Notes: generated from the letters alone by a model not told the origin. Shown: positions 14,588 to 64,000, numbered from the stretch's first letter. The stretch is 64,000 nt of DNA from an uncultured Acidimicrobiia bacterium (GCA_963836205.1 CAWIIV010000012.1:130255-194254), one strand, 5' to 3'. Program-made: numbers and translations.

Positions 14588-14734
14588 ATGCCCGGGCCGG
14601 CGGCGGCGCGCATGCGGGACCGGCTCGTCCATCACTACTACTTCGACATCGACCTCGACGTCCTCTGGAGAACTGTCACGGAGGAGCTACCGGCGCTGCT
14701 GGACGTGCTTGCCGAGACGGACAACGAGGGCTGA
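14588..14734 (+). pseudogene. C-terminal fragment of a HepT/DUF86 HEPN ribonuclease toxin
   Basis: AARMRDRLVHHYYFDIDLDVLWRTVTEELPALL contains the HEPN Rx4H motif; N-terminus absent. Confidence 0.75.
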
Positions 14735-14824
14735 CTCCGCTTCTGGCGCCGATGGTGAGCCGGGTGGAGGCGGGCGGCTCGCAGTATCTACGCTCCTGGC
14801 TTTGGGCCCCGGTGCCTGCCGGGC

Positions 14825-20085: not shown

Positions 20086-21365
<1,280 letters not shown>

Positions 21366-46256: not shown

Positions 46257-46598
46257 CTCGGTTCGCTCCTCGCTGTCGGACCGGCGGGCCGGCGCCGTCG
46301 CCAATGCGGCCGGCGGCGTCCAAATCCCTATCGGCGGGACCGTCGGCCGGGCCAAGAGAAATGGGCCGAATGGACCATGCCCAAAACGATTCGACGGCGA
46401 CGGACTGGCGGGAGCGGACCATCTGGGACCGGGGGTGCCGGGGACGGCCCGGGGAACCGCGGCCGGCGATGACGGCGCGCGTCGCCAACTTGGGGCGGGC
46501 GCTCGTGGATGGTGCTGGTGCCGCGGCCGACGGGGGCTCGGCTCGGGTAGTCGCTCGGAGTAACGAGGCAGGGGCGGGGTCGCGTCCCGCCCGCGGAC

Positions 46599-47414: not shown

Positions 47415-47484
47415 GTCGCGACTGTACGCCCGAGGGGCAATCGGGTACGTACGCTGGGGGGAAGGCGCTCTCAGAGGAGTCCTC

Positions 47485-48636
47485 GTGCACATCCCGTTCC
47501 ACGCCTCGGAGCGCAGCAGCCTCGGGATCGAGGTCGAGCTGGCGATCGTCGACCGCGAGACCCGCGAGCTCACCAGCGCGGCCACGTCGATCCTGGCCGA
47601 GATGGGAGCGTCCCATCCCGGCGGCGACCACCCCAAGGTGAAGCACGAGCTGTTCGAGTGCACCCTCGAGATCATCACCGGCATCTGCGGCACCGTGGCC
47701 GAGGCGAGGGACGACCTCGAGCACACGCTCAAGGAGGTGTCGGGCCCGATCGACGCCCGGGGCCTGGCCCTGCTCTGCGCCGGCTCCCACCCCTTCTCCC
47801 GCTGGCAGGACCAGCAGGTGAGCCCCAGCCCCCGCTACGCCGCCCTCCTGGAGGAGACCCAGTGGGCCGGGAAGCGACTGCAGATCTTCGGCGTGCACTT
47901 CCACGTCGGCGTGCGGTCGGCGGAGAAGGTCATCGCCATCGCCAACGCCCTCAACGCCTACATCCCCCACTTCCTGGCCCTGTCCGCCTCCAGTCCCTAC
48001 TGGGCCGGCTTCGACACGGGGATGGCGTCCAGCCGGAGCAAGGTCTTCGAGTGCCTGCCCACCGCCGGCCTGCCCTACCAGCTGGCCGGGTGGAGCGAGT
48101 TCGAGGAGTTCATGGGGACGTTCATCGCGGCCCAGGCCATCACCAGCATCCGCGAGGTGTGGTGGGACATCCGTCCCCACCCCGACTTCGGCACCGTGGA
48201 GCTACGCATCTGCGACGGCATCCCCACCATGCGGGAGGTGGCGTCGTTGGCCGCCATCGCCCAGAGCCTGGTGGAGTCGATGGACGTCCGCCTCGACGCC
48301 GGCGAACGGTTGATCGTGCCCCGGGAGTGGGTCGTCAAGCAGAACAAGTGGAAGGCGTCCCGTCACGGCATCGACGCCGACCACATCGCCGACGACCGAG
48401 GCGTCCGGGTCCCCCTCCGGGACGCCATCCACGAGCTGATCGACGATCTGTCGCCCACCGCCGCCCGCCTCGGGTGCCTCGACGAGCTGACGGCGAACCT
48501 CGAAGTGCTCGACTACGGGCCGAGCTACCTCCGGCAGCGGGCGATCATCGACGGCGGGGGCACGCTGGTCGACGTGGTCGACGCCCTGGTCGGCGAACTC
48601 GAGTCGGGCCGGCCCGCCGGGTCACCGTCGGCCTGA
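47485..48636 (+). CDS. Glutamate-cysteine ligase (GCS2/YbdK family)
   Basis: LGIEVE, FGVHFHVG, LALSASSP, WWDIRPHPDFGTVELRICD. Confidence 0.92.
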   Translation: MHIPFHASERSSLGIEVELAIVDRETRELTSAATSILAEMGASHPGGDHPKVKHELFECTLEIITGICGTVAEARDDLEHTLKEVSGPIDARGLALLCAGSHPFSRWQDQQVSPSPRYAALLEETQWAGKRLQIFGVHFHVGVRSAEKVIAIANALNAYIPHFLALSASSPYWAGFDTGMASSRSKVFECLPTAGLPYQLAGWSEFEEFMGTFIAAQAITSIREVWWDIRPHPDFGTVELRICDGIPTMREVASLAAIAQSLVESMDVRLDAGERLIVPREWVVKQNKWKASRHGIDADHIADDRGVRVPLRDAIHELIDDLSPTAARLGCLDELTANLEVLDYGPSYLRQRAIIDGGGTLVDVVDALVGELESGRPAGSPSA

Positions 48637-48696
48637 GGCGGGGCGCCGTCGGGCCGCCCGCCTGAACGAGCCGCGAGCCTCGGCGTCGGCCGCCGC

Positions 48697-48813
48697 TTAG
48701 GAGCTGCTGCCGCCCTTCTTCTCCGACTTCTTGGCCTGCTTGGCCGCTCGCTTCTCCTGGAGCGACTTGCCCGCCTTCTTGGTTTGAGGTTTGGCCGGCA
48801 CCTTGTTTCCCAT
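48697..48813 (-). CDS. 38-aa lysine-rich small protein (absent from ORF track)
   Basis: MGNKVPAKPQTKKAGKSLQEKRAAKQAKKSEKKGGSSS; TAGTCT -10 lies 6 nt upstream of the ATG. Confidence 0.7.
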   Translation of the reverse strand: MGNKVPAKPQTKKAGKSLQEKRAAKQAKKSEKKGGSSS

Positions 48814-48877
48814 GCCTTCAGACTACGCCCGGGCAGGGGTGGGTTTGCCGCCGAATTCTGCGGGTGAGGAGTCCGCC

Positions 48878-49105
48878 ATGGTCGAACTGAACGACGAGCT
48901 GCCAGAAGACGAGATCGAGGCCGCCGAGGCCACGTCCGCCGCCGTCGGCGACCACGGCCACGACGGCGTCACCGGGATCGACGGCTCCCTGGCCGAACAC
49001 CTCCAGACGGTCCACGACCTCGACGCCGACCCCTCCCTGAGCGCCGCCACCCAGGAGGGACTCCACGACCGCCTCCACGGCCAGTCGAAGTCCGCCGACG
49101 ACTGA
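48878..49105 (+). CDS. Small acidic His-rich protein (75 aa)
   Basis: GAGGAG RBS; HGH, HLQTVH and HDRLH motifs. Confidence 0.7.
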   Translation: MVELNDELPEDEIEAAEATSAAVGDHGHDGVTGIDGSLAEHLQTVHDLDADPSLSAATQEGLHDRLHGQSKSADD

Positions 49106-49262
49106 TCCGAGCCTCCCGAGCGATCGCCTACCAGGGGCATCGCGCCCACGCTCGCCGGTGACCACCGGCGGCGGGCCAGCGATTGCCACGAACACCCCCC
49201 TGGCGGCGGACTCGCGCCACTTGCTCGGGGTGGACAGCGACGCCTCGCGGTCGCTGGCGCGG

Positions 49263-50111
49263 TTAGGCGACGATTGAGACCGGGGTGCCGGGTGGGGCGG
49301 TGTTGGCCAGGATGGTGATGGCCTCGTTGGTCATGCGCACGCAGCCGTTGCTCGCGGGGGTGCCCAGGAGGGCGGGGTTGTTGGTGCCGTGGAGGGCGAT
49401 CTGGCCGATCCCGCCCCCGAAGCTGTAGTGGACGTTGGAGAAGGCGGCCACGCTCATCTGGTACGCCCCGTAGGGTCCGGTGGGGTCGGGGACCTGCACC
49501 GTCCCGTCGACGAAGTAGTTGCCGGTCGGCGTAGGGGTGCTGCCGGTGCCCACCGCCACGTCGGTGTCGAGGAAGGGCGTGGCCCCGTCGTAGGCGAGCA
49601 GCCGCCGCTCGCTGACGTTGACCACGATGCGGTACTGGGTCTGGCGGATGGAGACGTCGGCCTTGCGGATCCAGGCCGTCGACTCGTTGGGCCGCATCGA
49701 CACCTGGACCTCGAGCCAGTCACCCCACTCCTGCATCACCAGGTACACGCCCGGCAGCCCTTCCCACGTGGGGTTGTCGAGGGTGTCGGCCGGCTCGGCG
49801 TCGCCGGGCGCGTTGTAGAGGCCGACGGTGGGGACGATGGCGTCGGCCACGAGGGCGGGCGACGACGGTGGCCGGGCGTAACCGAGGCGAAGGGTGGCAC
49901 CGGGTTCGACCTCGCGGGTCGGCCCCAGGACGAGGGGAGCGGTGGTGGGTGTCGGCGCCACCGTGGTGGTCGGTGCCGATGCCGGCGCCTGGCCGACGAC
50001 CGCCAGCTCGCCCGAGTCGCGCGTCGACAGGTTGTGCCACGTGATCCCGAACAGGCCCGCAGCCAGCACGGCGGCCGCCACGCCGATGGTCGTCGAAGTG
50101 CGACGGCTCAT
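49263..50111 (-). CDS. L,D-transpeptidase
   Basis: VAVG..STPTPTG, ALHGT...SNGCVRM; N-terminal TM. Confidence 0.88.
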   Translation of the reverse strand: MSRRTSTTIGVAAAVLAAGLFGITWHNLSTRDSGELAVVGQAPASAPTTTVAPTPTTAPLVLGPTREVEPGATLRLGYARPPSSPALVADAIVPTVGLYNAPGDAEPADTLDNPTWEGLPGVYLVMQEWGDWLEVQVSMRPNESTAWIRKADVSIRQTQYRIVVNVSERRLLAYDGATPFLDTDVAVGTGSTPTPTGNYFVDGTVQVPDPTGPYGAYQMSVAAFSNVHYSFGGGIGQIALHGTNNPALLGTPASNGCVRMTNEAITILANTAPPGTPVSIVA

Positions 50112-50181
50112 TGGCGGGGAAGCCTACCGTCCCCAACCCTCGCCGTAGGGCGCGGGCGGCGCCGCCCCTACCTCGCTCCGA

Positions 50182-50532
50182 TCACGTCGGACGAGTGCGA
50201 CCGGCACCGGGCCAGGCGCCCCCGAACACCCGCCAGATGACTGCGGCGATGGCGAAGGCGCCGATCGCGACCGCCAGTCCCCCCCACGACCGCCAGAGGA
50301 CGGCCGCGATCGAGACCTGGACCCCGACGAGGGCCGGAAAGAGCGCCAGCCACCGGAGGACCCCTCTCATCTCGCCGAACGTCCCGCCTCCCCCCCACCA
50401 GATGGCCCCGGTCAGGGCCAGGCAGACGGCGGCGACCACGGCCGAGACCCAGTCCCCCAGGACCAGGGCGGAGTTCGTCGACCCCAGCCCGACGACGAGG
50501 GGAACCATCGCCAGCCACCGCCACCTGCGCAC
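50182..50532 (-). CDS. Small 4-TM membrane protein
   Basis: Hydrophobic ORF co-oriented with its neighbours. Confidence 0.55.
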   Translation of the reverse strand: MRRWRWLAMVPLVVGLGSTNSALVLGDWVSAVVAAVCLALTGAIWWGGGGTFGEMRGVLRWLALFPALVGVQVSIAAVLWRSWGGLAVAIGAFAIAAVIWRVFGGAWPGAGRTRPT

Positions 50533-50592
50533 TGTCTTCTCGCTCTCGTCGGGTGCCTACGCCATCGGAGCGGCCGATCACCGACTTGAGCC

Positions 50593-51981
50593 CTATGGCA
50601 GCGGCGTCGGCTTCATACGGGGCAGGTCGACGTCGATGCAGGCAACCGTACGGGGGTTGCCGCCGGCCAGGGCCACCATGCGGGCCGCGGCCTCGCTCAG
50701 GCGGCGTTCCGACAGCTTGCCCGCGGCCACCGCGTCGACCAGCCCGTCCCGCATCTCCTCGGCGAAGAAGCCATCGGTGACGAGCAGCCCGTCGGCGCCG
50801 GCGGCGATGGCCATGGGGGCGGCGTCGTAGAAGCCCCACGTGAGGTTGACGGCGCCCATGCCCAGGGAGTCGGTGATGGCGACGCCGTTGAACCCGAGGT
50901 CACGGAGCAGGGCGTAGGCCTTGGGCGAGAGGCTGGCCGGGAGGTTGCGGTCGAGGGCGCTGTAGCGGATGTGGTTCATCATCACGACAGGGATGCCCGC
51001 CCGCACCAGGTCGCGGAAGGGGCGCACGTCGGTGAGCCGCAGGAGGTCGAGGGGCGTGGTGATGGGCGCCGCCTCCTCGAAGTGGATGTCGTCGGTGGAG
51101 CGGCCCTGGCCGGGGAAGTGCTTGGCCACCGGCCGCACGCCCCCGTCGGTCATGCCCTGGGCGAAGGCGAGGGCGTACTCGGAGGCGATGGCGGGGTCGG
51201 ACGAGAACGACCGGTCGCCGATGATCTCGTCGTAGGGTCCGTCGGTGAGGTCGGCGACGGGCGCCAGGTTGAGGTCGATCCCGAAGCGGGCCAGCTCCCG
51301 GGCCACCGTGTGGGCGTAGGTCCGCACCTCGGAGGCGGGTCCCTCGTCGGCCATGCGCCGGGCGGACGGGCTGGGCCCGAGGATGTCGCCCAGGCTCGAC
51401 ACCCGGCCGGGCTCCTCGTCGACGCTGACCACGATCGGCCGCCCGGCCAAGGCCCGGATACCCCGGACCAGGCGGGTCAGCTGGGACTCGGACTCCACGT
51501 TCCCCGGGTTCAGGAAGATCCCGCCCACGCCTATGTCGAGCACCTTTTTGATGATCGGATCGGAGGGTTCCTTGACGTCGGGGATGCCGACGATCAGGGT
51601 TCGGGCCGCCCGCTGGGCCAGGGAGACGGGGGTGCAGCCCGGGATGGGGGCGGCCGGGGCGACCGCCGCCGGGGTGGGCGTCGTGGTGGCCGGCGTACCG
51701 GTCGGCGAGGCGCCGCCGCGGCCGGTCATGGTGGTCGGTGTGGCGGTCGACGAGGCGCCGCTGCCGGCGGTGATGGTGGACGCCGACCCGGCGAGGGTCG
51801 GGCCGGGGGCGATCGGACTCAGGCCGGCGGCGGGGGCGAGCGCGGCGACACCGCTGGCGGCGAGCTCGGTGCCGGGCCCGTCGGTCGATGCAGGGGTGGT
51901 GATCCACACCACCAGGCCGGTGAGGGCGATGCCGACGAGGGCCAGCACGACCAGCACCCGTGCCCGTGTCCGGTCGTGCAC
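50593..51981 (-). CDS. GH3 beta-N-acetylhexosaminidase (NagZ-like), membrane-anchored
   Basis: VDEEPGRV, APVAD, RSFS, KHFPGQG..DDIH, ITDSL; start uncertain. Confidence 0.88.
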   Translation of the reverse strand: MHDRTRARVLVVLALVGIALTGLVVWITTPASTDGPGTELAASGVAALAPAAGLSPIAPGPTLAGSASTITAGSGASSTATPTTMTGRGGASPTGTPATTTPTPAAVAPAAPIPGCTPVSLAQRAARTLIVGIPDVKEPSDPIIKKVLDIGVGGIFLNPGNVESESQLTRLVRGIRALAGRPIVVSVDEEPGRVSSLGDILGPSPSARRMADEGPASEVRTYAHTVARELARFGIDLNLAPVADLTDGPYDEIIGDRSFSSDPAIASEYALAFAQGMTDGGVRPVAKHFPGQGRSTDDIHFEEAAPITTPLDLLRLTDVRPFRDLVRAGIPVVMMNHIRYSALDRNLPASLSPKAYALLRDLGFNGVAITDSLGMGAVNLTWGFYDAAPMAIAAGADGLLVTDGFFAEEMRDGLVDAVAAGKLSERRLSEAAARMVALAGGNPRTVACIDVDLPRMKPTPLP

Positions 51982-52024
51982 AGGGCGGGACGCTACACGC
52001 GCCGATCCTTGGTCGGGGGATGGG

Positions 52025-52768
52025 TCAGGAGGCGGTGCCCGACTCTTCGAGCGCCAACCGAAGGGATTCCAACTCGGTGACCACGCCGTCGATGTCGGCC
52101 CCCAGGGGTTGGAGGGCGTCGATGTCGGCCGGTCCGAGGGAGAGCTCGACTGCCCGGGCCACCGTCTCGTTGAGCTGGGCGTTGAGCCGCCGGAGCCGGT
52201 CGAGGGCATCCCGGGCCACCGCCGCTACCCGGCGGGCCGATTCCAACTGACGGCGGAGGGCAGCCACCGTCGCCTCCAACTCGGGCCGTCCCGGGGACTG
52301 GGCCAGTTCGTCCTCCCGGGCCCCCAGCTCGGCCGCGATCGAGTCGGCATCGAGCTCGCGGACGGCGGCGTCGAGGCTGTCGCCCCGCTGGGCGATCTTC
52401 CACGAGGCGTCGACGGCCACGCTGACCTGGGCTGATACCTCCGACAGCCGGTCCCGAAGGGGCCCGTGGCGGGTGTGACGGACGGTCTCGTTGAAGCGGT
52501 CCTCGGCCTTGACCGCCTGGCGGACGAGGGATCGCCAGGGCTCCCGAATGGTGGCCGGGTTCATGTCCGGCCGCCTTTCCTTGCGGGGGATGGACATGAA
52601 CGCCTTGCCCGCCCACGCCGCCGCCCCGAAGGCTGCCGCCACCGCCAACGGCGCCCCGGCCAGGATGGCGGCCGCCGTCCCCGCCCCCGCCAGGAGGATG
52701 CTGGACGGCGCCATGATCGCCCGCGCCACCGCCGGCGTGCGGGCCCGCTCCGGCAGCCGTTCGAGCAT
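52025..52768 (-). CDS. Hypothetical protein with N-terminal TM hairpin and coiled coil
   Basis: Hydrophobic N-terminus and heptad-rich C-terminus; coding-like composition. Confidence 0.7.
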   Translation of the reverse strand: MLERLPERARTPAVARAIMAPSSILLAGAGTAAAILAGAPLAVAAAFGAAAWAGKAFMSIPRKERRPDMNPATIREPWRSLVRQAVKAEDRFNETVRHTRHGPLRDRLSEVSAQVSVAVDASWKIAQRGDSLDAAVRELDADSIAAELGAREDELAQSPGRPELEATVAALRRQLESARRVAAVARDALDRLRRLNAQLNETVARAVELSLGPADIDALQPLGADIDGVVTELESLRLALEESGTAS

Positions 52769-52882
52769 CCCGCCATTCTGACCTCCGCGCCGATTGGTCG
52801 TCGTAGAAACGTCGCCGATCGTCGTGATGGGTGACCGGGGCCGCCGCTCTCATGGGACTCTCGCCAGCCGACGAGCCATCCT

Positions 52883-54600
52883 TTGCGTGTGGCGACCCCA
52901 CGGAGGATCTCACCCCCCAGGCCGCGGTGGGGCTCGATCGCGCAGACCCGACCAGGGCGGGACACAGCCCGGGGGGACCTCATGGCCGCGCTGGCAGTGT
53001 CCGCCTACCTCGTGCCCCAGTGCATGGCCTACGCCCGGCTTGCCGGGCTGGAGCCGGTGACCGGCCTGTGGGCCGCGATTCCCGGCCTTCTGGCCTACGC
53101 CGCGTTGGGCACGAGCTCGCGGCTATCGGTCGGCCCCGAGAGCGCGTCGGCACTGCTCGCCGGTTCCGCGGTCGCGACGCTCGTCGGCGGTGGCGGCACC
53201 TCCGACGCTGCGGCCGTGGCCGCGGCACTGGCAGTGGCGGTCGGGATGGTGTCTCTCGTGGCCTGGGCCGCCCGCCTCGGCTTCCTCGCCGACCTGCTGT
53301 CGAAGCCGGTGCTGGTCGGCTACATGGCCGGAGTGGCGGTCATCATGATCGTCAGCCAGCTCCCGAACCTCACCGGCATCGCCTCCGACAGCCGCGAGAC
53401 CCTCCCGCGGGTGGGGGACATCCTCGGCCGGCTCGGTGAGCTGCGTCTGGCGCCGGTGCTGATCGGTGCCGGGGTGGTCGCGGCCCTGGTCGTGCTGCAG
53501 CGGTGGAAGCGCCTACCGGGGCCGCTGCTCGTGGTGTTGGTGGCGACCGTCGCCACCAACGTGCTCGGGTTGGAGAGCCGTGGGGTCGCCACCGTCGGAG
53601 CCGTCCCGGCCGGGTTGCCTGCCCTCGCGTTCCCCTCGGTGCCGGCTTCGCTGTGGCCGGCGATCTTTGCGGCGGCCGTCGGCATCGTCGTCGTGGTCTT
53701 CAGCGACACGATTCTCACGGCGCGAGCGTTCGCGAGGCGTAGCGGGGACACAATCGACGCCAACCAGGATCTCCTTGCCCTTGCCGGCGCCAACGCCGCC
53801 GCCGGCCTCGTCGGCGGGCTCCCCGTCTCGTCCTCCGGCAGCAGGACAGCGATCGTCGACGCCGCCGGAGGGACGAGCCAGCTCGTCAGCATCTTCGCCG
53901 CCGGGTGCGTCGCCGCGGTGCTGCTCGTGGCCGGTCCGGTGCTCGAGTCGTTCCCGCTCGCCGCGCTCGGCGGCCTCATCGTCTACGCCGCGGCGCGCTC
54001 GTCGAAGTCGCGGAGATGCGCCGGGTCGCGGCCTTCCGGCGCGGCGAGGCGGTCGTCATGGCCGCCGCGTTTGTCGGGGTCGTCGTCTTCGACGTGCTCC
54101 CAGGTATCGGGATCGCCGTCGCGCTGAGCGTCGCCGAGCTGTTCGCCCGCATCGCCCGGGCCCACGACGCGGTCGAGGGCGAGGTGCCCGGGCTCGCCGG
54201 ACTTCACGACGTCGACGACTACGAGTCTGCCCGGACCGTGCCTGGCCTGGTGGTATATCGGTATGACGCGCCGCTGTGCTTCGCCAACGCGCAGGACTTC
54301 CGCCTCCGGGTGCTCGAGGCCGTCGGCGCCGAGTCGACGCCGGTGGAGTGGGTCCTGCTCAACATGGAGGCCAACGTCGAGATCGACATCACCGCCACCG
54401 ACATGCTCGAGCGGCTCCGGGCCGAGCTGGCATTGGCGGGCACCGTTCTAGCCCTGGTTCGGGTGAAGAACGACCTGCTGCTCTACCTCGATCGCGCCCG
54501 ACTGGTTTCACGCATCGGCCCCGCCCGCATCTTCTTCACGCTCCCGACGGCTCTCGACGCGTTCCGGCACCGGAACGACGACGCCCCACCGGAGCCGTGA
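52883..54600 (+). CDS. SulP-family anion transporter with STAS domain (frameshift near 53997)
   Basis: LVPQCMAYA.LAG, LSVGP, DANQDL.AL, SSSGSRT; second frame VYRYDAPLCFANA, IDITA. Confidence 0.88.
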
Positions 54601-54990
54601 CCCATGGCCAGGTGGTCGTGTCGACAGTCGGAAGGTGATCGTCGCCCTTGGCGCAGCAGCGCGGGGAGAGGACGTTCTCCAGGCACTGGCGCTCCCGACG
54701 ACGCCGGCGCGATCCACGCTCCGAAGCCATGCGGAGCCGCGTCGTGGTCGAGAACGACATCGGCGAAGCGTCGACACCGAACGGCCGAACTGGAGGGCGG
54801 CCGGCAGCTGGCAGGTCGTATCGGTCGCGGGCGTACGACCCGCCCGGGCCCACCGCTGTTATCGGATGGAAACGCCCGGCGCCTAACCGCCCCTCCCGGC
54901 ACTCATGCCGGTGATCCTGTCAAGTATCGGCGGGATATGCCGGTGATCGGCCGGGCCGTTGGCGACCCGGCCGACCGGTGTCGTAGGAGG

Positions 54991-56244
54991 TCAGGCGGTG
55001 TCTCGGTCGAGCTCGCCCAGGAGCTTGTCGAACAACTCGACGCGCTGCACTGGTCGTGGTCGCGGGCGTGGTCTCGCTGGCGCTGGATCGTGGGGCGGAA
55101 CTCTATGGTGGCCTGGAAGAAGCCGCATCCCTCGCAGACGGACTCGAACGAGCAGTCGAGCTCGGCCGGCCGGGTGCACCAGCCGTTGGCCAGCATGCGC
55201 CGGTGCTCGTTGCGCAGGCGACGCATGGCCGGCGTCTCCTGGCCGGCGTCTGCGTAGAGGGCCTCCACCCGCTCGCTGATGGCGTGGTACTCGACGGTGG
55301 TGTTGGCGATGCGGGCGTAGACCATCGTCATGCGCAGGCTGCGGTGACCGAGCAAGGGCTATGGCCTCCAGCCGCATCCCCCGATTGACGGCCTGGGTGG
55401 CGAGCGTGTGACGCAGCTGGTGGGGATGCACGTGACCGATGCCGGCGGCCTTGGCCACCCGTCGCAACATCCGGGTCACCACGTGTCGGTTGAGGGGCCG
55501 GCCGCAGTTGGTGAGCAACAGGCCGCCGCTTCCGCCGTCGTGGCTCTTCGACCAGGCGGCGAGGGACTCGACGAGGTGGGGCCGCAAGGGGACATAGCGG
55601 TCGTTGTGCAGCTTGCCCAGCGGCACGCGCAACCAGTGGGCCTCTCCCATGAGGACCACCGCGTCGGCCTCCAGGGCGCACAGCTCGCCGACGCGCAGGC
55701 CGGTGTAGGCCAGCAGCTCGATCACCAGGCGCCGCAGCGGTGACGGGTCGTCCGCCGCCGCCCGCAGCAGCCGGGTGGCGGCGGCGTCGTCGAGGAAGCG
55801 GGGCAGGGGCTCGTCGGCCACCGGCAGGTCGGCGCCGAAGATCGGGGTGCGGGCCGGGGCGTCGGGCCAGTCCCACTCGATGATGCGGTCGAAGAACGTG
55901 CGCAGCATGCCCAGGCGCTGGCGGATGGTGTTGGCCGACAGGGGAGCTCGACGAGGGGTGCGGCAGAGGAGCAGCCAACGCTTGAAACCCTCGATCTCGA
56001 CGCGGCCGACAGCAGCGAAGCGATCCGTCGCCGGGTGGTGCCCGAGTAGGTAGTTGCAGAAGATGCGCAACGTGGAGTCGGCCACGACCACGCTGCCCGG
56101 CCGCAGCGACAGGGCGATCTGGTCCAGGTAGCGCCGGGCGGTGCCGGCCAGCTGTGGCGCCTGGCCCACGATGACGGCCCACTCCCGCTCGCTGGAGGAA
56201 GGGACCACGCCAGCGGCGACCAGGGCGGGCGCGGGGGCGCTCAC
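54991..56244 (-). pseudogene. Tyrosine recombinase B with C-terminal Cys cluster (frameshifted)
   Basis: TGLRVGEL, GKLHNDRYVPL, HPHQLRHT, LGHRSLRMTMVYAR, NGWC....C....CEGC; frameshifts near 55357 and 55048. Confidence 0.85.
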
Positions 56245-57276
56245 TTCGCCGCCGCCTGGGGGAGCTGCCGGCCGGCCTCGATCAGCTCGGCCGCCCGCTG
56301 GTACTCGCCCGCCAGCCAGTCGTTGGCCAGGTGCAGGTAGATCCGGGTCGACTCGATAGAGCGGTGGCCGGCCTGGGCCTGCACCGCCTCCAAGGCCATC
56401 CCCGCCTCCCGCAGCCGGGTCAGGCACGTATGGCGCAGCTCGTGACAGCTGGCGTGAGCCAGGCCCGCCCGCTGGCGAGCGGCTCGCATGACCTGATCGA
56501 GGCCGTCGTCGCTCAAGGGCTGGCCCCGGCGTGGTCCCTTCAGCGCCACAAACACCCTCTCGGTATCGGCCGAGGTCGGGCGCTCGTCGGCCAGGTAGAT
56601 GGCGAGGCTGCGGAAGAAGCGCGCGGAGATGGGGATCAGCCGCTGATGCCCGCCTTGCCCGCGGCCACGAACAGCCGGCCCTCGCCCGGTCGCAGGTCCT
56701 CGAAACGCAGCCCGAGCACCTCGCAGCGCCGAAGGCCCCCCAGCACCATGGCCTCGACCATGGCCCGGTCCCGCCACCGCCGCAGGGCGGCGACGAGGGC
56801 GTCCACCTCGGCCGGCTCGAGGATCTTGGGCAGGGTCCGGGGCGTGCGGATGAGCGGTGTCCCCCGGCCCTGGCGGCGAGCCCGGCGGGTGGCCAGGCCT
56901 CGGGGCACGGGATTGGCCGTCATCTCGCCCACCATGACCAAGTAGGCGAACAGACCGACACGCTCGACAGCCGCCGCTTGATGGTGCGCGCCGACAGGCC
57001 CGACTCGCCGTCGGCCAGGCGCACGACCCGGCCGTCGCCCCGGGGCCGGCGCTGGCTGGTGATGAACGCCAGCACGTCGGCGGTGGTGACCTGGGCCGGC
57101 TCCTTGTCCACGGTGGCGAAGAAGATCCGCAGGTCCGACACCGTGGCCAGCACGGTGTTGCGCAGCGTGCGGGCCGCCACGAACTCCAGGTACCGGTCGA
57201 GCAGAGGATCGCCCGTCATCGGTGGTGGGCCACCGACTCCGCGGGCACCAATCAGGCAAGGGTCTCGGAAGGTCAT
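56241..57276 (-). pseudogene. Tyrosine recombinase A (frameshifted)
   Basis: LSARTIKRRLSSV, LPKIL, GLRRCEVL, HELRHT, AGHRSIESTRIY; frameshifts near 56955 and 56650. Confidence 0.85.
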
Positions 57277-57488
57277 CAGGTTGCTCCTCTCAGCTGTACG
57301 GCCCGTCGGAGTGACGAGCAGTGAAAAGCTTTAAGGATCACCGGCATATCTACACGTGTGCGCTACCTCGCACGGTCTGTGACGATGAGCGTATCGGACG
57401 AGTCACTCGCCAGGGAACGCCGGAAGTCGGGCGCGCGTTCTCGTCTTCCTGACGAGTCGGGAGGCGTGACTTTGAGGGCCATCTTCGC

Positions 57489-57633
57489 TGGCAGGGCCTC
57501 GATCTCCTTCGAGGCAACGGCGCCCAGCGACGTCACCGTGGAGCTCCTTGCGCAGACGGATCGTCGACGCTGCCTTGTGCGGCTTGGCGATCCGATCACC
57601 TCGTCTCCCGCGTGCTCCAGGCGTAGAGCCTGA
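57489..57633 (+). pseudogene. 3' remnant of a paralog of the TM protein at 61534-62292
   Basis: SISFEATAPSDVTVELLAQTDRRRCLVRLGD..SSPACSRRRA matches the C-terminus of the 61534-62292 protein. Confidence 0.85.
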
Positions 57634-57645
57634 CGGCGGGGCGCG

Positions 57646-60600
57646 TCAGCCCTGTTGGAGTCGGGCGATGAGGGCGCGGGCCCTCTCGGCCTGTTGCTCG
57701 GCGCCCCCGCCGTAGGACTCGAAGTCGGCGAGGGCGGCCTGGGCGAAGAGGAGAGCGTCGGCGGGTCGGTCGTTGGCGAGCATGGTGGCGATGTTGAACC
57801 GCGTTACGCCGGCTCCGAAGCGGTTGCCCATCGCTATCTTGTGCTTGATCGATCGCTGGTAGTGGTCGAAGGCGCGGGGGACGTCACCGGCGCGGTCGTA
57901 GACGATGCCGAGTTGGCCGTGGGTGACAGCCAGGTCGGCGACGTCGTCGGCGGGGAACAGGGGCAGGGCCTCCTGGTAGCGACGGGCCGCGTCGTTGAGG
58001 TGACGGACGAGGACCTCCACCGGCTCGCGAGCCTTGACGGCGTCGTAGAACCGCTCCAGGGCGACGCCACCCAGCTGGCCCAATGATCGGGCCCGGTGGA
58101 TCGGGGCCTTGTCGCCAACCAGCTCCAGGCTGTGCTGATACCAGTGCTCGGCTTGGTCGAGGTCCCGCAGGGCCGGGATGACCTGGTAGGCGGCGCCCAG
58201 GTTGAAGGCGTCGACCGACTCGGCGATGTTGTCGCCGATGCCGGCGGCGAGGGCCATGGCCTCCCGGTAGTGCTCGGCGCAGCCGGGGTCGCCCTGCTCG
58301 CGCAGGATCTGCCCGAGCGCCTGAGCCGACACGCCCAGGTTGCGGATCCGGTTGCGCTGGTCGCGGGTGCGCCGCGCCGCCGGGGTGGCCAGGGCGTCGG
58401 CCGCCCGGTGGCGGTCGACCGCCACCTGGGCTCGCTGGAGGCGCTCGGCTGCGGCCCAGCCCCGCTCGGCCCGGGCCAGGCGGACCCGATACTGGGTGAG
58501 GATGCCCCACGCCTCATCCCGCCCGGGCCGGGGACCGTCGCCGCCGGCCTCGACGTAGAGGCCGGAGGCGCCCTCCACCAGGCGGGCCCACTCGCCAGCG
58601 CGGCCCTGGTGGTTATAGAGGACGTGCAGGCCCTGCATGGTCCCGATGGCCTCGGCCCACCAATCGCCGGCCACGGCCAGGCGCCGGGCGTGGAGCAGGT
58701 TGGCCTCCTCGGCTTCGAGGACGCCGACCACCTGGTGGCGGCCTTCCTCGTAGGCGCGGTTGTAGTAGGTCCCGAGTCCGCCCATGGCCGCGGCGTAGGC
58801 CCGGGATGGCCCCGGTGCCCCCGCCGTGTCGGCCTCGCCCCAGGCCTCGGCCAGGGCGGGGGCCAAGAACCAGGGCAGGGCCGGGTGGAGCCGGTAGTAG
58901 CCGCCGCCGGCCGGGCTGAGCAGGCCGGCCTCGGCGGCCCGGTCGAGCAGTCCCACCCACTCCTTTTTGCCGAGGCCCCCGAGGCCGGCCAGGTGCTGGG
59001 CCGTGGAGGGGTCGCCCATGGCCACCAGGGCGTCGGCGTCCACGAAGCCCTGGAACAGCCCGAGCAGGGCGAGGCGGGCCTGGTCGGGGGGGCCGAAGGC
59101 GTCGGTGAAGCCGTAGCGCAGCGACGCGCCCAGCGAGCGTGATCGCCCCTCGGCCTGGGCGTGGTCCTCCAGGTCCTGGCCGGCCCGCAGGCGGGCCACG
59201 AAGGCCTCGATGCCGGCGCTGGTGGCCAGACCCTGGCGCAGCGCCTGGCTCACCACCATGGTGGTGGTGAGGGGGTTGCCCTCGGCGTAGCGCAACAGGG
59301 GCCGCCAGTCCTCCAGCTCCCCCAGGCGCCGCCCGTGGCGGTCGGCCACCGCCCGGGCCAGCTCCACCCGCTCGCGCATGGGCATGGGGGCCAGCTCGAC
59401 CCGGCTGGCCAGCACCCCGAGCCACTCGTGCTCGGGGCGCCGGGAGGTGAGCAGCACCCGGGCCTTGGTGGCCCGCACCTGGCCCAGGAAGGCGCGCAGC
59501 TGGCCCTGCTCGTCGGCCGTCCACGCCGAGGCGGCACCGGGGGGAAACCCGGCCACGCCCTCGACGTTGTCCCACACCCACAGCAGCCGGGCCCGGCCCA
59601 GCAGCTGCAGGGCGACGTTGCGCTGCTCGGGCTCCGACAGCGCCGACCAGTGGATGTCGTTGGCGCCCAGGACGCCAGCGAACACGTCGGCCACCTGATC
59701 GAGCAGGCGGGGCAGGGTGATGGGGCGTTCGAAGCTGCTCCACAGCACCGCATCGGCCCCGCCGGTGCGCCAGTACCAGCGGGCGAACTCGGCGGCGGTG
59801 GCCGTCTTGCCCGCCCCCGCCAGCGCCCACAGCACCACCACCTGGTGGTCGTCGAAGGCCCGGTCGAGGCCGAGCAGGGTCTCGTCGCGCCCGAAGAACC
59901 CGACGTCGGGGGCGTCGGGGACCCGGCCCGGGACCGCCTCGGCGCCAGGGTCGAGGACCACTCGCTCGGCCTCGCCGGGGGCGAACAGGCGACGCGGGGC
60001 CGCCTCATAGGCGACGGGCACCACCCAGTCCTGCAGGGGACGGGGGTCATAGGCGATGGAGCGCTGGGGGTCCTCGGCCAGGCCCTTGCGCCCCCGGGTG
60101 ACGGCCTCGCCCAGCTCGTGGCCCTCCAACAGCGCGGCGTAGAGGTCCTCGACGAAGGCGGCGGCGGTGACCACGTAGACGCTGTAGCGCATGGCCACCA
60201 CCCCCGGGACCCCGGCGTCGACCACCTCTTGGGCCAACGACCCGTAGGCGCGGACCCGGGCGTGGAGGTCCTCGGCCGCCTCGGGGTCGGCCTCGGGGGC
60301 GGTGGGGGCCTCGGCATGGGCCGAGCGACAGGCGTTGAGCACCAGCACCGACACCGCGGTGTTGGCCAACAGCTTGCCGAGGGCGGGGCCGTCGACGTAC
60401 TGGACCTTGGCCTCGGCGCCGGGGTCCTCGAAGGCCAAGTAGCCATGCGCCCCGGCCCGCACGGGAGACAGCATCGAGTAGCGCTGCGCGTCGTGGTGGC
60501 CGTCCTGCGGCTCGCCTCCCGACAGATCGGCCCAGGTGCCGTGGCCGTCGAAGTGCACGACGTGGTAGGGCCGGCCCGCCTCCTTCGCCGCCTGGAGCCG

Positions 60601-61218
60601 GGCCGCCATGGCCGCGTAGGTGGGCGGGCGCAGCACGTCGAGGTCGAACGCCGGCAGGCTGCGGCCCAACTCGACCAGGTGGCGGGCCACCGAACGGAAC
60701 GGCACGTCGCCTCGGCCCCCCGGCCGACAGATCACCAACAGCACCCGCAGCTGCGCCCCGGCGGGCGACAGGTCCGGTCGGCGGGCGGGCTGGTCGTGGG
60801 CCCGCACGAAGGACCGGGCCCCGAGGGCTACCGCCTGGTCGGTGCGGGGGTCCCGCAACAGCTCCCAGGGCAGGGACGCATCACCCGGGTCGGCCGCCAC
60901 CTCCACCCTGGTCTCGCCCAGGCGAGGGCGCACCCGGGCCCACAGCTCGGCCGCCTCGCCGGCGAAGACCGATCCGAACAACCTCGTTCCCAGCTCGCCC
61001 AGCCTCGCCTCCGCCGCCGCCGCCAACGTGGGGGCGGGGTCGAGGGGGAACTCGAGGTAGTCCTCCAGGTACCAGCGCAACTGCTCCCGGTCGGCTGCGT
61101 CGAGGGGGAAGACGAAACGGCTCGATGCCCGCTCGACGACGCTGCCGTCGTCCAGCGAGACATCGACGGCATGGGCGTCACCAGCCTCGCTGCGGTGCAC
61201 GAGCCGCAGCGTCAGCAT
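57646..61218 (-). CDS. CHAT (caspase-like) protease plus STAND/NB-ARC-like NTPase plus TPR repeats (1190 aa)
   Basis: LPWELL, HVVHFDGHG and LNACRS catalytic dyad, VVAMRY, DWVVPV; FFGR, Walker A AGAGKT, Walker B VWDNVE, LLTSR, GNPL; C-terminal TPR-like repeats. Confidence 0.92.
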   Translation of the reverse strand: MLTLRLVHRSEAGDAHAVDVSLDDGSVVERASSRFVFPLDAADREQLRWYLEDYLEFPLDPAPTLAAAAEARLGELGTRLFGSVFAGEAAELWARVRPRLGETRVEVAADPGDASLPWELLRDPRTDQAVALGARSFVRAHDQPARRPDLSPAGAQLRVLLVICRPGGRGDVPFRSVARHLVELGRSLPAFDLDVLRPPTYAAMAARLQAAKEAGRPYHVVHFDGHGTWADLSGGEPQDGHHDAQRYSMLSPVRAGAHGYLAFEDPGAEAKVQYVDGPALGKLLANTAVSVLVLNACRSAHAEAPTAPEADPEAAEDLHARVRAYGSLAQEVVDAGVPGVVAMRYSVYVVTAAAFVEDLYAALLEGHELGEAVTRGRKGLAEDPQRSIAYDPRPLQDWVVPVAYEAAPRRLFAPGEAERVVLDPGAEAVPGRVPDAPDVGFFGRDETLLGLDRAFDDHQVVVLWALAGAGKTATAAEFARWYWRTGGADAVLWSSFERPITLPRLLDQVADVFAGVLGANDIHWSALSEPEQRNVALQLLGRARLLWVWDNVEGVAGFPPGAASAWTADEQGQLRAFLGQVRATKARVLLTSRRPEHEWLGVLASRVELAPMPMRERVELARAVADRHGRRLGELEDWRPLLRYAEGNPLTTTMVVSQALRQGLATSAGIEAFVARLRAGQDLEDHAQAEGRSRSLGASLRYGFTDAFGPPDQARLALLGLFQGFVDADALVAMGDPSTAQHLAGLGGLGKKEWVGLLDRAAEAGLLSPAGGGYYRLHPALPWFLAPALAEAWGEADTAGAPGPSRAYAAAMGGLGTYYNRAYEEGRHQVVGVLEAEEANLLHARRLAVAGDWWAEAIGTMQGLHVLYNHQGRAGEWARLVEGASGLYVEAGGDGPRPGRDEAWGILTQYRVRLARAERGWAAAERLQRAQVAVDRHRAADALATPAARRTRDQRNRIRNLGVSAQALGQILREQGDPGCAEHYREAMALAAGIGDNIAESVDAFNLGAAYQVIPALRDLDQAEHWYQHSLELVGDKAPIHRARSLGQLGGVALERFYDAVKAREPVEVLVRHLNDAARRYQEALPLFPADDVADLAVTHGQLGIVYDRAGDVPRAFDHYQRSIKHKIAMGNRFGAGVTRFNIATMLANDRPADALLFAQAALADFESYGGGAEQQAERARALIARLQQG

Positions 61219-61340
61219 CCCATCTACCCCCCGTTCCGCCCGTACCCGGAGGGTAGCGGGCGTTGGGGAAGAACGTCCGGGTCTGGGGTTTGCGGGCTAC
61301 CCTCAACCTCCGGGGGACAGCCGACAAGGCGAAAGAGCCA

Positions 61341-61532
61341 TTGGAGATCGAACCGGAGTCGTATCGCTGCGAAGCCCACGACGTCGACCTCACCGAGCTC
61401 GTCCGTGAAGCGCTCGATGAGAGCATCCCCGTTGCCTATGGCCGCCGCACGCGGTCGTTCGAGGTGATCATCACCTGCCCCGGCGGCGGTTCTGCGCACC
61501 GTGTGGTAGCCGCGGGGCGGCGGGTGGGCTGA
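61341..61532 (+). CDS. Small protein with CxxH and Cx6H motifs (putative metal binding)
   Basis: MEIEPESYRCEAHDVDLT...TCPGGGSAH; TTG after GAAAGAG (alternative start 61263); stop lies 1 nt before the next start. Confidence 0.65.
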   Translation: MEIEPESYRCEAHDVDLTELVREALDESIPVAYGRRTRSFEVIITCPGGGSAHRVVAAGRRVG

Positions 61533-61533
61533 G

Positions 61534-62292
61534 GTGGCCGACGGCGGCGTGCGAGGCGTGACGCCGTCCGATGAGTACTGGCAGGGGGCGGGCGAGGCTC
61601 TGTCGCCGGAGAAGTCGCTCGCCCGGATCGACGAGAAGGCCAGGCACCTCGTGGGGAGCGTGGGTGTCGTCGGTGCCGTCCTCGGTGCCGGTGGGCTCGT
61701 CGCCAGCCAGAACCTGGCAGCCGGCGGGGTGGCGCGCGCCTTGGCCTTCACATCCTCCGTGCTCGCCTTCGTGGCGGTGGCCGCTGCACTTGGAGCAAGT
61801 CTGCTGCGCTTCGAGGCCAGCCTTCCGCATCGCGACCTGATCGCCGTTCGCGCCTGGTACGACGGGCAGTTCCAGCGGGCCAAGCTGGTGGTCGTAGGCG
61901 GGGCGCTTCTCTTGTGTGCCGTCATAGTTGCCGCCGTCGCAGCGACGACTGCCTTCTTCTCGACGGCGCGCCACGACCCGTCGCTGTCGATCGCCGCCAT
62001 CCCCAGGAACAACATGTCCGCCATCTCAGCCAAGGTCACGGCAACTCACGTTGCATCGAAGGAGCTGCTGCATGCCGAACTGGCAGCCACGGTCAGCGGG
62101 AGGCGCACAGTGATCGCCACGGGCGTGTCGAGCGCCGATGACGATGGGAAGGTTTCGATCTCGTTCGAGGCCACGGCGCCCGTGGATGTCATCGTGGAGC
62201 TCGTGGCGCAGACGGATCGTCGCCGCTGCGTTGTGCGGCTTGGCGATTCGGCCAGCTCGTCCCCCGCGTGCTCCAAAAGGCGTAGAGCCTGA
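61534..62292 (+). CDS. Membrane protein (about 3 TM) with C-terminal beta-rich domain
   Basis: Hydrophobic segments, then a Cys-pair C-terminal domain; a diverged paralog fragment at 57489 supports the reading frame. Confidence 0.75.
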   Translation: MADGGVRGVTPSDEYWQGAGEALSPEKSLARIDEKARHLVGSVGVVGAVLGAGGLVASQNLAAGGVARALAFTSSVLAFVAVAAALGASLLRFEASLPHRDLIAVRAWYDGQFQRAKLVVVGGALLLCAVIVAAVAATTAFFSTARHDPSLSIAAIPRNNMSAISAKVTATHVASKELLHAELAATVSGRRTVIATGVSSADDDGKVSISFEATAPVDVIVELVAQTDRRRCVVRLGDSASSSPACSKRRRA

Positions 62293-62304
62293 CGTCGAGG
62301 CGCG

Positions 62305-64000
62305 TCAGCCCTGCTCGAGTCGGGCGATGAGGGCGCTGGCATTCTCGGCCTGTTCCTCGGCGCCCCCGACGTAGGACTCGTAGTCGGCGAGGGCGGCCTG
62401 GGCGAAGAGGAGAGCGTCGGCGGGCCGGTCGGTGGCGAGCATGAGAGCGATGTTGAACCGCGTCACGCCAGCTCCGAAGCGGTTGCCCCTCGCCATCTCA
62501 TACTTGATCGATCGCTGGTAGTGGTCGAAGGCGCGGGGGATGTCACCAGCGTGGTCGTAGACGACGCCGACTTGGCCGTGGGTGACGGCCAGGTCGGCGA
62601 TGTCGTCGGCGGGGAACAGGGGCAGGGCCTCCTGGTAGCGACGGGCGGCGTCATTGAGGTGACGGACGAGGACCTCCACCGGCTCACGAGCCTCGATGGC
62701 GTCATAGAACCGCTCGAGGGCGATGCTACCCAGCTGGCCCAGTGATCGGGCTTGGCGGATCGGCGCCTTGTCGCCACGGAGCTCCAGGCTGCGTTGATAC
62801 CAGTGCTCGGCTTGGTCGAGGTCCCGCAGGGCCGGGATGGCCTGGTAGGCGGCCCCCAGGTTGAAGGCGTCGATCGACTCGGCGATGTTGTCGCCGATGC
62901 CGGCGTCAAGGGCCATGGCCTCCCGGTAGTGCTCGACGCAGCCGGGGTCGCCCTGCTCGCGCAGGATCTGCCCGAGCGCCTGAGCCGACGCGGCGAGGGT
63001 GCGGATCCGGTTGCGCTGGTCGGGGCTGCGTTGTGGCGCGGGGGTGGCCAGGGCGTCGGCCGCCCGGTGGCGGGCGACCGCCACCTGGACCCGCTGGAGG
63101 CGCTCGGCTGCGGCCCAGTCTCGCGCGGCCCGGGCCAGGCGGACCCGATACTGGGTGAGGATGCCCCACGCCTCATCCCGCCCGGGCCGGGGACCGTCGC
63201 CGCCGGCCTCGACGTAGAGGCCGGAGGCGCCCTCCACCAGGCGGGCCCACTCGCCGGCGCGGCCCTGGTGGTTATAGAGGACGTGCAGGCCCTGCATGGT
63301 CCCGATGGCCTCGGCCCACCAATCGCCGGCCACGGCCAGGCGCCGGGCGTGGAGCAGGTTGGCCTCCTCGGCTTCGAGGACGCCGACCACCTGGTGGCGG
63401 CCTTCCTCGTAGGCGCGGTTGTAGTAGGTCCCGAGTCCGCCCATGGCCGCGGCGTAGGCCCGGGATGGCCCCGGTGCCCCCGCCGTGTCGGCCTCGCCCC
63501 AGGCCTCGGCCAGGGCGGGGGCCAAGAACCAGGGCAGGGCCGGGTGGAGCCGGTAGTAGCCGCCGCCGGCCGGGCTGAGCAGGCCGGCCTCGGCGGCCCG
63601 GTCGAGCAGTCCCACCCACTCCTTTTTGCCGAGGCCCCCGAGGCCGGCCAGGTGCTGGGCCGTGGAGGGGTCGCCCATGGCCACCAGGGCGTCGGCGTCC
63701 ACGAAGCCCTGGAACAGCCCGAGCAGGGCGAGGCGGGCCTGGTCGGGGGGGCCGAAGGCGTCGGTGAAGCCGTAGCGCAGCGACGCGCCCAGCGAGCGTG
63801 ATCGCCCCTCGGCCTGGGCGTGGTCCTCCAGGTCCTGGCCGGCCCGCAGGCGGGCCACGAAGGCCTCGATGCCGGCGCTGGTGGCCAGACCCTGGCGCAG
63901 CGCCTGGCTCACCACCATGGTGGTGGTGAGGGGGTTGCCCTCGGCGTAGCGCAACAGGGGCCGCCAGTCCTCCAGCTCCCCCAGGCGCCGCCCGTGGCGG
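62305..64000 (-). CDS. Second CHAT-STAND-TPR paralog, C-terminal part (5' end beyond the window)
   Basis: Colinear with the last ~560 residues of the 57646-61218 protein. Confidence 0.9.
   Translation of the reverse strand, partial: RHGRRLGELEDWRPLLRYAEGNPLTTTMVVSQALRQGLATSAGIEAFVARLRAGQDLEDHAQAEGRSRSLGASLRYGFTDAFGPPDQARLALLGLFQGFVDADALVAMGDPSTAQHLAGLGGLGKKEWVGLLDRAAEAGLLSPAGGGYYRLHPALPWFLAPALAEAWGEADTAGAPGPSRAYAAAMGGLGTYYNRAYEEGRHQVVGVLEAEEANLLHARRLAVAGDWWAEAIGTMQGLHVLYNHQGRAGEWARLVEGASGLYVEAGGDGPRPGRDEAWGILTQYRVRLARAARDWAAAERLQRVQVAVARHRAADALATPAPQRSPDQRNRIRTLAASAQALGQILREQGDPGCVEHYREAMALDAGIGDNIAESIDAFNLGAAYQAIPALRDLDQAEHWYQRSLELRGDKAPIRQARSLGQLGSIALERFYDAIEAREPVEVLVRHLNDAARRYQEALPLFPADDIADLAVTHGQVGVVYDHAGDIPRAFDHYQRSIKYEMARGNRFGAGVTRFNIALMLATDRPADALLFAQAALADYESYVGGAEEQAENASALIARLEQG

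Follow-up and report, generated by a model that had tools for sequence, protein, structure and literature searches.

The window analysed here, a stretch of 64,000 nucleotides (nt) of DNA from an uncultured Acidimicrobiia bacterium (GCA_963836205.1, CAWIIV010000012.1:130255-194254; G000:C12:130255-194254 in our notation), carries near its right end a gene for a caspase-like CHAT protease joined to a P-loop NTPase and tetratricopeptide repeats (TPRs) and, divergent from it, two coupled genes for a small Cys/His protein and a transmembrane (TM) protein. Tentatively, and with slightly less than even confidence, we read this trio as a functional unit with protease-effector logic, in which the small and TM proteins would form a facultative membrane accessory or effector module of the caspase-like STAND protein. 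We favor this reading because the protease and NTPase motifs are intact and invariant in 33 homologues, the small and TM genes are coupled and a probable fusion of the two exists; because a CHAT gene adjoins 7 of 11 loci with the pair, in three matching clades of both gene trees, and both families are rare; and because the two CHAT copies at the locus diversify only in the TPR region and a recombinase gene adjoins it.

The preliminary description of this locus had placed here an 1190-amino-acid (aa) CHAT-NTPase-TPR open reading frame (ORF) and a divergent coupled pair encoding a 63-aa and a three-TM protein, all of which were recovered in exactly these positions (Table 1). It had further given the large protein (P0001, the product of CHAT1) a caspase-like protease/STAND-type NTPase/TPR layout with intact His/Cys motifs, and an architecture of caspase-like protease, P-loop NTPase and TPRs is borne out by Pfam matches to CHAT (PF12770; E 1.8e-14, 54.3 bits against a cut-off of 24) and TPR_12 (E 8.7e-10) and by residues invariant among its homologues. 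The gene has a GC content by codon position of 0.79/0.51/0.93, and its translation holds YHVVHFDGHGTW, VLVLNACRSA and the Walker A sequence LAGAGKTAT, with the motifs HFDGHG, LNAC and GAGKT, followed about 80 residues after Walker A by the Walker B-like WVWD550N. In an alignment of P0001 with 32 homologues chosen from 120 listed, H222, H226, C297, G468, G470, K471, W547, W549, D550 and N551 are invariant. The His/Cys dyad thus defined is intact, and we infer His226 to be the candidate catalytic histidine. A P-loop NTPase with Walker A and Walker B sits between the CHAT domain and the TPRs, and it is, judging by its sequence, probably of the AAA_16/MalT STAND type, with STAND-profile matches that are weak on P0001 itself (AAA_16 18 bits against a cut-off of 32.6; nSTAND3 E 0.02). 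Among the 33 aligned proteins, the CHAT profile matches all 33, TPR_12 32, AAA_16 28, TPR_MalT 13 and nSTAND1 2 (E <= 0.001). A profile search of solved structures with P0001 returned TPR proteins only, and no STAND structure was matched by sequence.

P0001 belongs to a family of at least 2967 proteins (E <= 1e-10 among 8000 candidates scored, a lower bound). Members from several phyla share about 50-55% identity over 1,200 residues, and they frequently occur in tandem arrays. The 120 listed homologues share 49-93% identity with P0001, mostly over 97-100% of its length and in a few cases over 61-92%; named sources among them are Krasilnikovia, Actinoplanes, Micromonospora, Asanoa, Anaerolineae, Planctomycetota and Competibacteraceae, and several share a contig, such as three on one contig of 28,245 bp. 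The family is nevertheless sparse in sampled genomes, with no match among 400 other class-sample genomes (E <= 1e-20) and one among 400 from the phylum sample (E <= 1e-50), and 11 plasmid records hold partial matches to P0001 only (25-37% identity). The source genome itself contains six CHAT-domain ORFs in total. The five others, of 602-1587 aa, lie on contigs C7, C21, C24 and C23 (L005-L007, L009 and L010), two of them about 7 kb apart on C23, and a search within this genome found no neighbor resembling the TM protein (P0003) at any of the five.

The small gene has the GC pattern of coding sequence (0.72/0.52/0.80 by codon position, GC3 > GC1 > GC2), as has the TM gene (0.69/0.55/0.81), and both ORFs are conserved down to 26-50% identity. 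The longest reading of the small ORF starts at 61263; we take its product (P0002) to be 63 aa because the starts of its homologues, one of them an ATG, coincide with the TTG at 61341. Across 12 small proteins, down to 41% identity, P5, Y8, C10, D16-L17-T18, V21, F40, V42, C46-P47-G48, H53 and G59 never vary, while 11 have H13 and the twelfth has it offset by one residue, giving the motif YxCxxH...DLTxxV...FxVxxxCPGGxxxH. The AlphaFold model (mean predicted local distance difference test score, pLDDT, 75.1) consists of a strand, a helix and a beta-hairpin, with a stretch of variable length between the helix and the CPGG hairpin. The four conserved Cys/His residues (C10, H13, C46 and H53), placed on two turns, suggest that the small protein may bind zinc. 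Fold matches are weak (best Z 3.2; the ZitP zinc finger at Z 2.5), Foldseek found no match at E <= 0.001, and Pfam matched 0 of the 12 members (E <= 0.05). In a protein atlas the closest clusters are unnamed hypothetical proteins, and the nearest named ones are zinc-ribbon-like, at scores of 0.88-0.90 that serve as a lead only.

P0003 has three hydrophobic segments, and its model shows three long helices followed by a beta-sandwich. Conservation is concentrated in an N-terminal segment (W16, P25, S28, L29, R31 and D33) and in a loop (L102, V105, W108, Y109, Q112, F113 and R115). The C-terminal beta-sandwich, with two conserved Cys in most family members, is modeled at pLDDT of about 87-94 and matches only generic immunoglobulin (Ig)-like domains; it probably faces outward. 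TM copies that stop right after the third helix occur in L016, in L049 (about 140 aa) and as one of the copies in L051 (about 140 aa). By full profile search the TM family comprises 526 representative clusters at 50% identity (E <= 0.001), of which 358 remain at <= 1e-10 and 104 at <= 1e-30. An earlier view of the pair as lineage-specific was dropped, as the word-index searches behind it (6 TM and 4 small homologues) had undercounted the family relative to the profile search. No informative name was found among the 10 TM-family clusters looked up, Pfam gave no match on P0003 and only scattered matches among 78 family members, each in at most three of them, and no relative was found among viral contigs. 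Five longer family proteins (P0195, P0208, P0209, P0260 and P0262) carry no informative Pfam domain and may be over-long ORF calls. A 245-aa three-TM ORF that follows a degraded CHAT copy in L054 was considered as a relative of P0003 and proved unrelated (hhalign probability 0.05%).

The two genes are closely joined. In the window the GTG of the TM gene begins 1 nt past the TGA of the small gene, the same 1-nt distance separates them in L014, and stop and start overlap (ATGA or GTGA) in six loci. At L067:8557-10197 (G755:C2) a single 547-aa ORF contains both parts, its variable loop being enlarged by an insertion of about 170 residues; its N-terminus carries a YxCxH...DVTxQVR motif seen by eye, hmmsearch matches it in two collinear pieces (E 5.9e-4), and the hhalign probabilities are 52.6% for the small family (E 1.4e-4) and 81.7% for the TM family (E 1.1e-5). 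No CHAT gene lies within about 9 kb of it. Sequence comparison makes this ORF a probable fusion of the small and TM proteins, and as such it speaks for joint action of the two and for a cytoplasmic location of the Cys/His domain. The pair is a translationally coupled evolutionary unit of its own.

The census of linkage covers the 11 loci found with the pair or its fused form, and a P0001-like CHAT gene is adjacent in seven of them (the window, L014, L015, L017/L058, L018/L051, L049 and L019/L057). CHAT genes flank the pair on both sides in L017/L058 and in L014, a metagenome contig 84-92% identical to the window; L018/L051 holds two units, L049 has a divergent CHAT gene, and L019/L057 a divergent CHAT gene only. 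In L015, also a metagenome contig, a DUF2231 gene is the upstream neighbor of the pair, and past the small and TM genes lies a convergent C-terminus that shares 53.5% identity with P0001 residues 990-1188, where the contig ends. The pair is itself rare, with 1 marginal match (E 0.0083) in 57 other genomes of the family, 1 marginal match (to the small protein) in 400 other class-sample genomes, 1 match in 300 other genomes of the order of G830, and 2 weak matches in 400 genomes with the broad TM profile. Because the CHAT family and the pair are both rare in the sampled genomes, chance adjacency is negligible.

In a quick IQ-TREE phylogeny of CHAT residues 600-1190 (47 rows), pair-linked copies fall in three deep clades, namely one of four soil metagenome-assembled genomes (MAGs) that also contains unlinked copies (SH-aLRT 98), the L015 clade (97) and the window clade (100), and the label of linked or unlinked changes at least 3-4 times. 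In the TM-family tree (92 rows), CHAT-linked pairs likewise form three separate, well-supported clades that match the CHAT clades, between which the TM proteins are 25-35% and the CHAT proteins about 50% identical. L016 is nested within a linked TM clade, and L055 and L063 form a CHAT-less sister clade. The pair has remained beside this CHAT family while three lineages diverged deeply. Our reading of these trees is that the pair and the CHAT gene were inherited together over the long term, with repeated loss of either; selection for joint function as the keeper of the linkage is beyond what tree data can show.

In this uncultured soil actinomycete with its high GC content (68-77% G+C across the window; genome of 4.05 Mb in 25 contigs, 88.6% complete), the locus takes the form of a tandemly amplified cassette next to a recombinase gene. 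Positions 62155-64000 repeat 57499-59341 at 95.07% over 1846 nt, with a unit of about 4.66 kb, and 57486-57619 repeats 62142-62275 at 84%. CHAT2 is convergent with the TM gene, 12 nt separating their stop codons, and its protein is 93% identical to CHAT1 residues 627-1190. The amino-acid differences between the two copies number 40 at residues 918-1188 and 0 at residues 627-917, with a ratio of non-synonymous to synonymous rates (dN/dS) of 0.56 (43 non-synonymous and 27 synonymous differences). The preliminary description had the CHAT and TM genes recurring in a tandem repeat next to a mobile element; the recombinase and the repeat stand, while the second occurrence consists only of the truncated CHAT2 and a TM relic, and only one copy of the small gene is present in the window. 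The window ends where its 194,254-bp contig ends, within a stretch identical between the copies, which we infer to be the behavior of an assembler at a collapsed repeat. Contigs from three soil or biocrust runs gave short fragments 90-99% alike with many low-confidence joints, too little to count the units of the array or to reach its right flank. Twenty DNA sequencing runs share sequence words with the locus, each fewer than half, and no RNA run is listed. No tRNA gene was found in 45000-64000. Within 61224-61314 the spacer between CHAT1 and the small gene holds inverted repeats, for example GAGGGTAGC / GCTACCCTC (9 nt perfect, 38 nt apart), counted without a chance control. A promoter scan found no sigma-70-like site in this spacer, and a terminator scan found one terminator-like site, inside the TM gene and at chance level.

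Table 1 Features of the CHAT locus and its left flank, in window coordinates.
Feature	Position	Strand	Basis or remark
Tyrosine recombinase (phage-integrase family), 478-aa ORF	54991-56427	-	Pfam Phage_integrase E 7.5e-24, Phage_int_SAM_5 E 3.1e-4; left edge of cassette
Fragmentary second recombinase, two overlapping ORFs	56636-57276	-	Phage_integrase E 1.1e-5 (56636-57259), Phage_int_SAM_1 E 0.0019 (56920-57276)
Relic of upstream TM-gene copy, 3' end, about the last 50 codons	~57475-57633	+	73% aa identity to P0003 residues 200-250; DNA alignment
CHAT1 (P0001), 1190-aa CHAT protease/P-loop NTPase/TPR protein	57646-61218	-	ATG-started ORF, Pfam
C-terminal TPR region of CHAT1, residues 918-1188	57655-58467	-	TPR matches; all CHAT1/CHAT2 differences
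Walker A (G468-A-G470-K471-T472) of central NTPase	59803-59817	-	Sequence; invariant G468, G470, K471
CHAT (caspase-like) domain, residues 110-398	60025-60891	-	Pfam envelope
Candidate dyad	His226 60541-60543, Cys297 60328-60330	-	Invariant in 33 sequences
Divergent spacer between CHAT1 and small gene, 122 bp	61219-61340	.	Short inverted repeats
Small Cys/His protein (P0002), 63 aa	61341-61532	+	TTG start; 12-sequence alignment
TM protein (P0003), 252 aa	61534-62292	+	GTG start; three TM helices and C-terminal beta-sandwich
CHAT2, second copy of CHAT-NTPase-TPR gene	62305-64000	-	Only part matching residues 627-1190; open at contig end

As the most likely mechanism, modeled on the STAND proteases treated in passages of PMC12642450 and PMC13581612, the TPR region would bind a trigger, as known STAND proteases suggest, and the NTPase would drive oligomerization, thereby bringing CHAT domains together and activating the protease by proximity. 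Speculatively, the CHAT domain might then cut either the small protein, most plausibly in the loop of variable length that separates its helix from the CPGG hairpin, or a conserved segment of the membrane protein on the cytoplasmic side; we hold any specific cleavage target with less confidence than the reading of the trio as a unit. Cleavage would alter the state of the membrane protein and could, speculatively, lead to loss of membrane integrity or to a signal and hence to cell arrest or death, and a tandem array whose copies vary in the TPR region alone would broaden the range of triggers. The three genes recur together in distant relatives and could form a cell-suicide or defense module of a new kind. 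A complex prediction with CHAT residues 1-440, TM residues 1-150 and the small protein scored 0.00, which is no answer and counts neither way.

Several observations weigh against joint function. The preliminary description had expected homologues of the partners to be linked to CHAT genes, and this holds for the adjacency in seven loci and three clades; in the other four (L016, L055, L063 and L067), however, no CHAT gene lies within about 6-10 kb, and G1121, the genome of L063 and of unstated completeness, yielded no match resembling P0001 at E <= 1e-10. Conversely, 5 of the 15 CHAT copies in the tree stand without the pair (L050, L052a, L053, L054 and L056), among ordinary genes or insertion sequence (IS) elements, and a sixth, L052b, was kept out of the tree as an N-terminal part only. 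The linkage is facultative both ways. The CHAT family spans Actinomycetota, Chloroflexota, Planctomycetota and Gammaproteobacteria, and its size far exceeds the pair-linked copies seen. The seven linked loci are not all independent, the window and L014 being close relatives and three loci coming from related MAGs, and the linked label clusters no better than shuffles on both trees (as low in 228 of 500 shuffles on the CHAT tree and in 205 of 500 on the TM tree). The sole adjacent CHAT gene of L015 is convergent and downstream rather than divergent, and hhalign of the CHAT protein against the two partners found no shared adaptor domain (0.3% and 0.5%).

One alternative is that the pair is an independent two-gene membrane module, for instance for envelope signaling or maintenance, without direct interaction with the CHAT protein, the adjacency being an inherited and amplified arrangement of the island. 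We consider this unlikely, though it is the alternative that survives best. The pair stands alone in four loci, once in a genome without a detectable CHAT homologue and once as a probable fused protein; most of the 526 TM clusters are without assigned genomic context, many CHAT copies lack the pair, and a tandem duplication carries neighbors along whatever their function. Functionally uncoupled gene order is, however, seldom kept over long evolutionary distances, and adjacency in the same divergent orientation with a short spacer persists across clades with only 25-35% identity between TM proteins and about 50% between CHAT proteins; moreover, the CHAT-less L016 nests in a CHAT-linked clade and looks like a recent loss.

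A second possibility, which we regard as rather improbable, reverses the direction of signaling, such that the outward Ig-like domain would sense phage adsorption, cell-wall damage or another event at the envelope, the zinc-binding protein would relay it to the TPR sensor or be guarded by that sensor, and the CHAT domain would cut other cellular targets. The confidently modeled beta-sandwich with its two conserved Cys suggests an extracytoplasmic domain, an anti-sigma-factor sensor domain is among its weak structural neighbors, docking could occur on the TM protein's conserved cytoplasmic N-terminal segment and loop, and it is in the TPR region that the tandem copies diversify. In contrast, several CHAT-linked TM copies lack the whole C-terminal domain (those of about 140 aa in L049 and L051), the structural matches are to generic Ig-like folds, and the characterized STAND sensors in the passages of PMC13581612 bind phage proteins directly.

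Slightly less probable still, the pair could be an undescribed membrane complex that links the envelope to a cytosolic caspase-like protein of the NOD-like receptor (NLR) type, either as an outside-in sensor, whose extracellular domain would report phage adsorption or wall damage to the TPR-NTPase-CHAT protein, or as a resident membrane pore-former that the zinc protein would hold shut until the protease removes it. Least probable is that the small protein is a zinc-finger transcription regulator acting on a shared divergent promoter region and controlling both the CHAT and the TM gene, since the divergent layout in the window, L017, L018, L019 and L049, whose short spacers measure about 120-290 bp, the inverted repeats in the 122-bp spacer and the zinc-ribbon-like atlas clusters (a lead only) are set against translational coupling and a probable fusion to the membrane protein, which fit a membrane-associated subunit better, against structure searches that matched no DNA-binding fold (best Z 3.2; none at E <= 0.001 in Foldseek), and against repeats that are short, lie in a GC-rich region and lack a chance control.

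Returning to the trio as a protease-effector unit, its partners match no named family or defense-system model, as the preliminary description had supposed. PADLOC gives nothing for them and, for P0001, only a generic TPR model (E 0.0067), with no Cas-related match for any of the three proteins; NCBIfam release 20 has no match for any of the three either, and Pfam finds none of the 12 small proteins and only the scattered TM matches. The PADLOC-DB v2.0.0 library includes Avs1-5 and the bNACHT models of 2023, and Avs families named later fall outside it; among the 33 CHAT homologues its matches are TPR (19), SAVED_CHAT (3) and GajB (1).

Bacterial gasdermin loci are alike in that a CHAT-type protease gene adjoins one for a protein that would target the membrane. 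Gasdermins stay soluble until cleavage, in contrast to P0003, for which three TM helices and an Ig-like domain are predicted; neither it nor the 78 family members have a gasdermin Pfam match. The type III-E CRISPR protein Csx29, which occurs with Csx30/Csx31, likewise combines CHAT and TPRs, and it cleaves a small protein encoded nearby that controls a downstream response. Here, however, the CHAT domain is N-terminal and a P-loop NTPase precedes the TPRs, so that activation would be NTPase-driven rather than RNA-guided; Cas-related models matched none of the three proteins, and no CRISPR-array scan of the window was made. The protease-STAND-repeat layout has reportedly long been known, from Koonin and Aravind in 2002 and Leipe et al. 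in 2004. To our knowledge, the partners characterized so far are all soluble pro-toxins or zymogens.

The closest parallels are found in passages of PMC12642450, which describe small proteins (EACC1 and Pepco) that are encoded beside caspase-like STAND proteases and cleaved into pore-forming toxins, among ten families of protease-effector modules (MBL, alpha/beta-hydrolase, Pepco, EACC1, PCaspase, gasdermin, CATASP, MPE, CalpT and Csx30). As described there, EACC1/KrAvs12 and Pepco/SsAvs4 share with our locus an N-terminal protease, caspase-like or of another kind, a STAND NTPase, a repeat sensor and an adjacent small protein outside known enzyme families, and occur in actinomycetes and other multicellular bacteria. 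In contrast to them, the partner here comprises two genes, one for an integral membrane protein rather than a soluble pro-toxin, has no Pfam match, often lies divergent from or convergent with the protease gene rather than in the same operon, and is linked to it only facultatively. Passages of PMC13581612 treat bacterial Apaf-1-like proteins with caspase-like N-termini. Bacterial apoptosome-like caspase-NTPase-repeat proteins have the same three-part layout and a patchy distribution, suggestive of horizontal transfer, in filamentous or multicellular bacteria, but the sensor here is a TPR rather than a beta-propeller, and the passages searched make no mention of a Cys/His and membrane pair. CATRA/CATASP, listed in the passages of PMC12642450, is by its name a caspase/TPR protein with an associated small protein; NCBIfam release 20, which may include CATRA models, matched none of the three proteins. 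A pair of a Cys/His protein and a three-TM protein beside CHAT-STAND genes is not described in the passages of PMC12642450, PMC13581612, PMC7159879 and PMC8195603 that were searched.

Other features were seen around the pair and the CHAT copies. In L014 the CHAT gene on the minus strand (1417-5069) matches P0001 in two frames that switch at about 3618, through either a frameshift or a sequencing error. The truncated TM gene of L016 lies, with its small gene, between a MurT-like gene and one for a 956-aa HerA-like ATPase (10419-13289, minus strand; HerA_C E 9.3e-11), which is convergent with it at an overlap of about 10 nt and is followed by a PPK2 gene, and the neighbors of the L063 pair are genes for CoA-transferase, acyl-CoA dehydrogenase and SIS-domain proteins. 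L019 has, beyond an MFS transporter gene and about 3 kb downstream of its CHAT-small-TM unit, a gene at 13290-15533 (minus strand) for a separate 747-aa STAND-TPR protein without a protease domain (AAA_22, NACHT-like and TPR_12). Between the two tandem pair-less CHAT paralogues of L052 lies a 313-aa ORF (8593-9534, plus strand; G830:C9) with a GC3 of 0.89 and no Pfam family, which could be an alternative CHAT partner; a LuxR-type STAND-TPR regulator is encoded upstream. In L050 (G830:C9:209000-223000) a DDE_3 transposase gene splits a CHAT paralogue, beside which lies a transposase gene of the IS110 family.

Elsewhere in the window, a sulfate permease just left of the recombinase gene is split into two overlapping ORFs at 52883-54600 on the plus strand (Sulfate_transp at 52883-54127 and STAS at 53905-54600), which suggests a frameshift or an assembly error. 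A pair of 86-nt inverted repeats lies at 1352-1437 and 20440-20525, 72% complementary, with arms 19 kb apart.

Protease-fused STAND proteins that activate neighboring latent effectors are an emerging major logic of bacterial immunity, parallel to caspase/gasdermin and apoptosome signaling, and the CHAT-NTPase-TPR family is uncharacterized despite its breadth across phyla. As the protease-STAND-repeat layout is already known, the new element, if the coupling is functional, is the membrane-embedded two-protein partner; if it is not, what remains is an ordinary island, flanked by a recombinase, in which an NLR-like gene has been amplified. Were the pair a membrane complex, either form of it would make this the first bacterial caspase-NLR with an integral membrane protein as its partner. 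If the trio does act as a unit, a tiny metal-binding protein together with a membrane protein bearing an outward domain would represent a new class of effector or sensor, and an unannotated family of at least 526 sequence clusters would gain a function.

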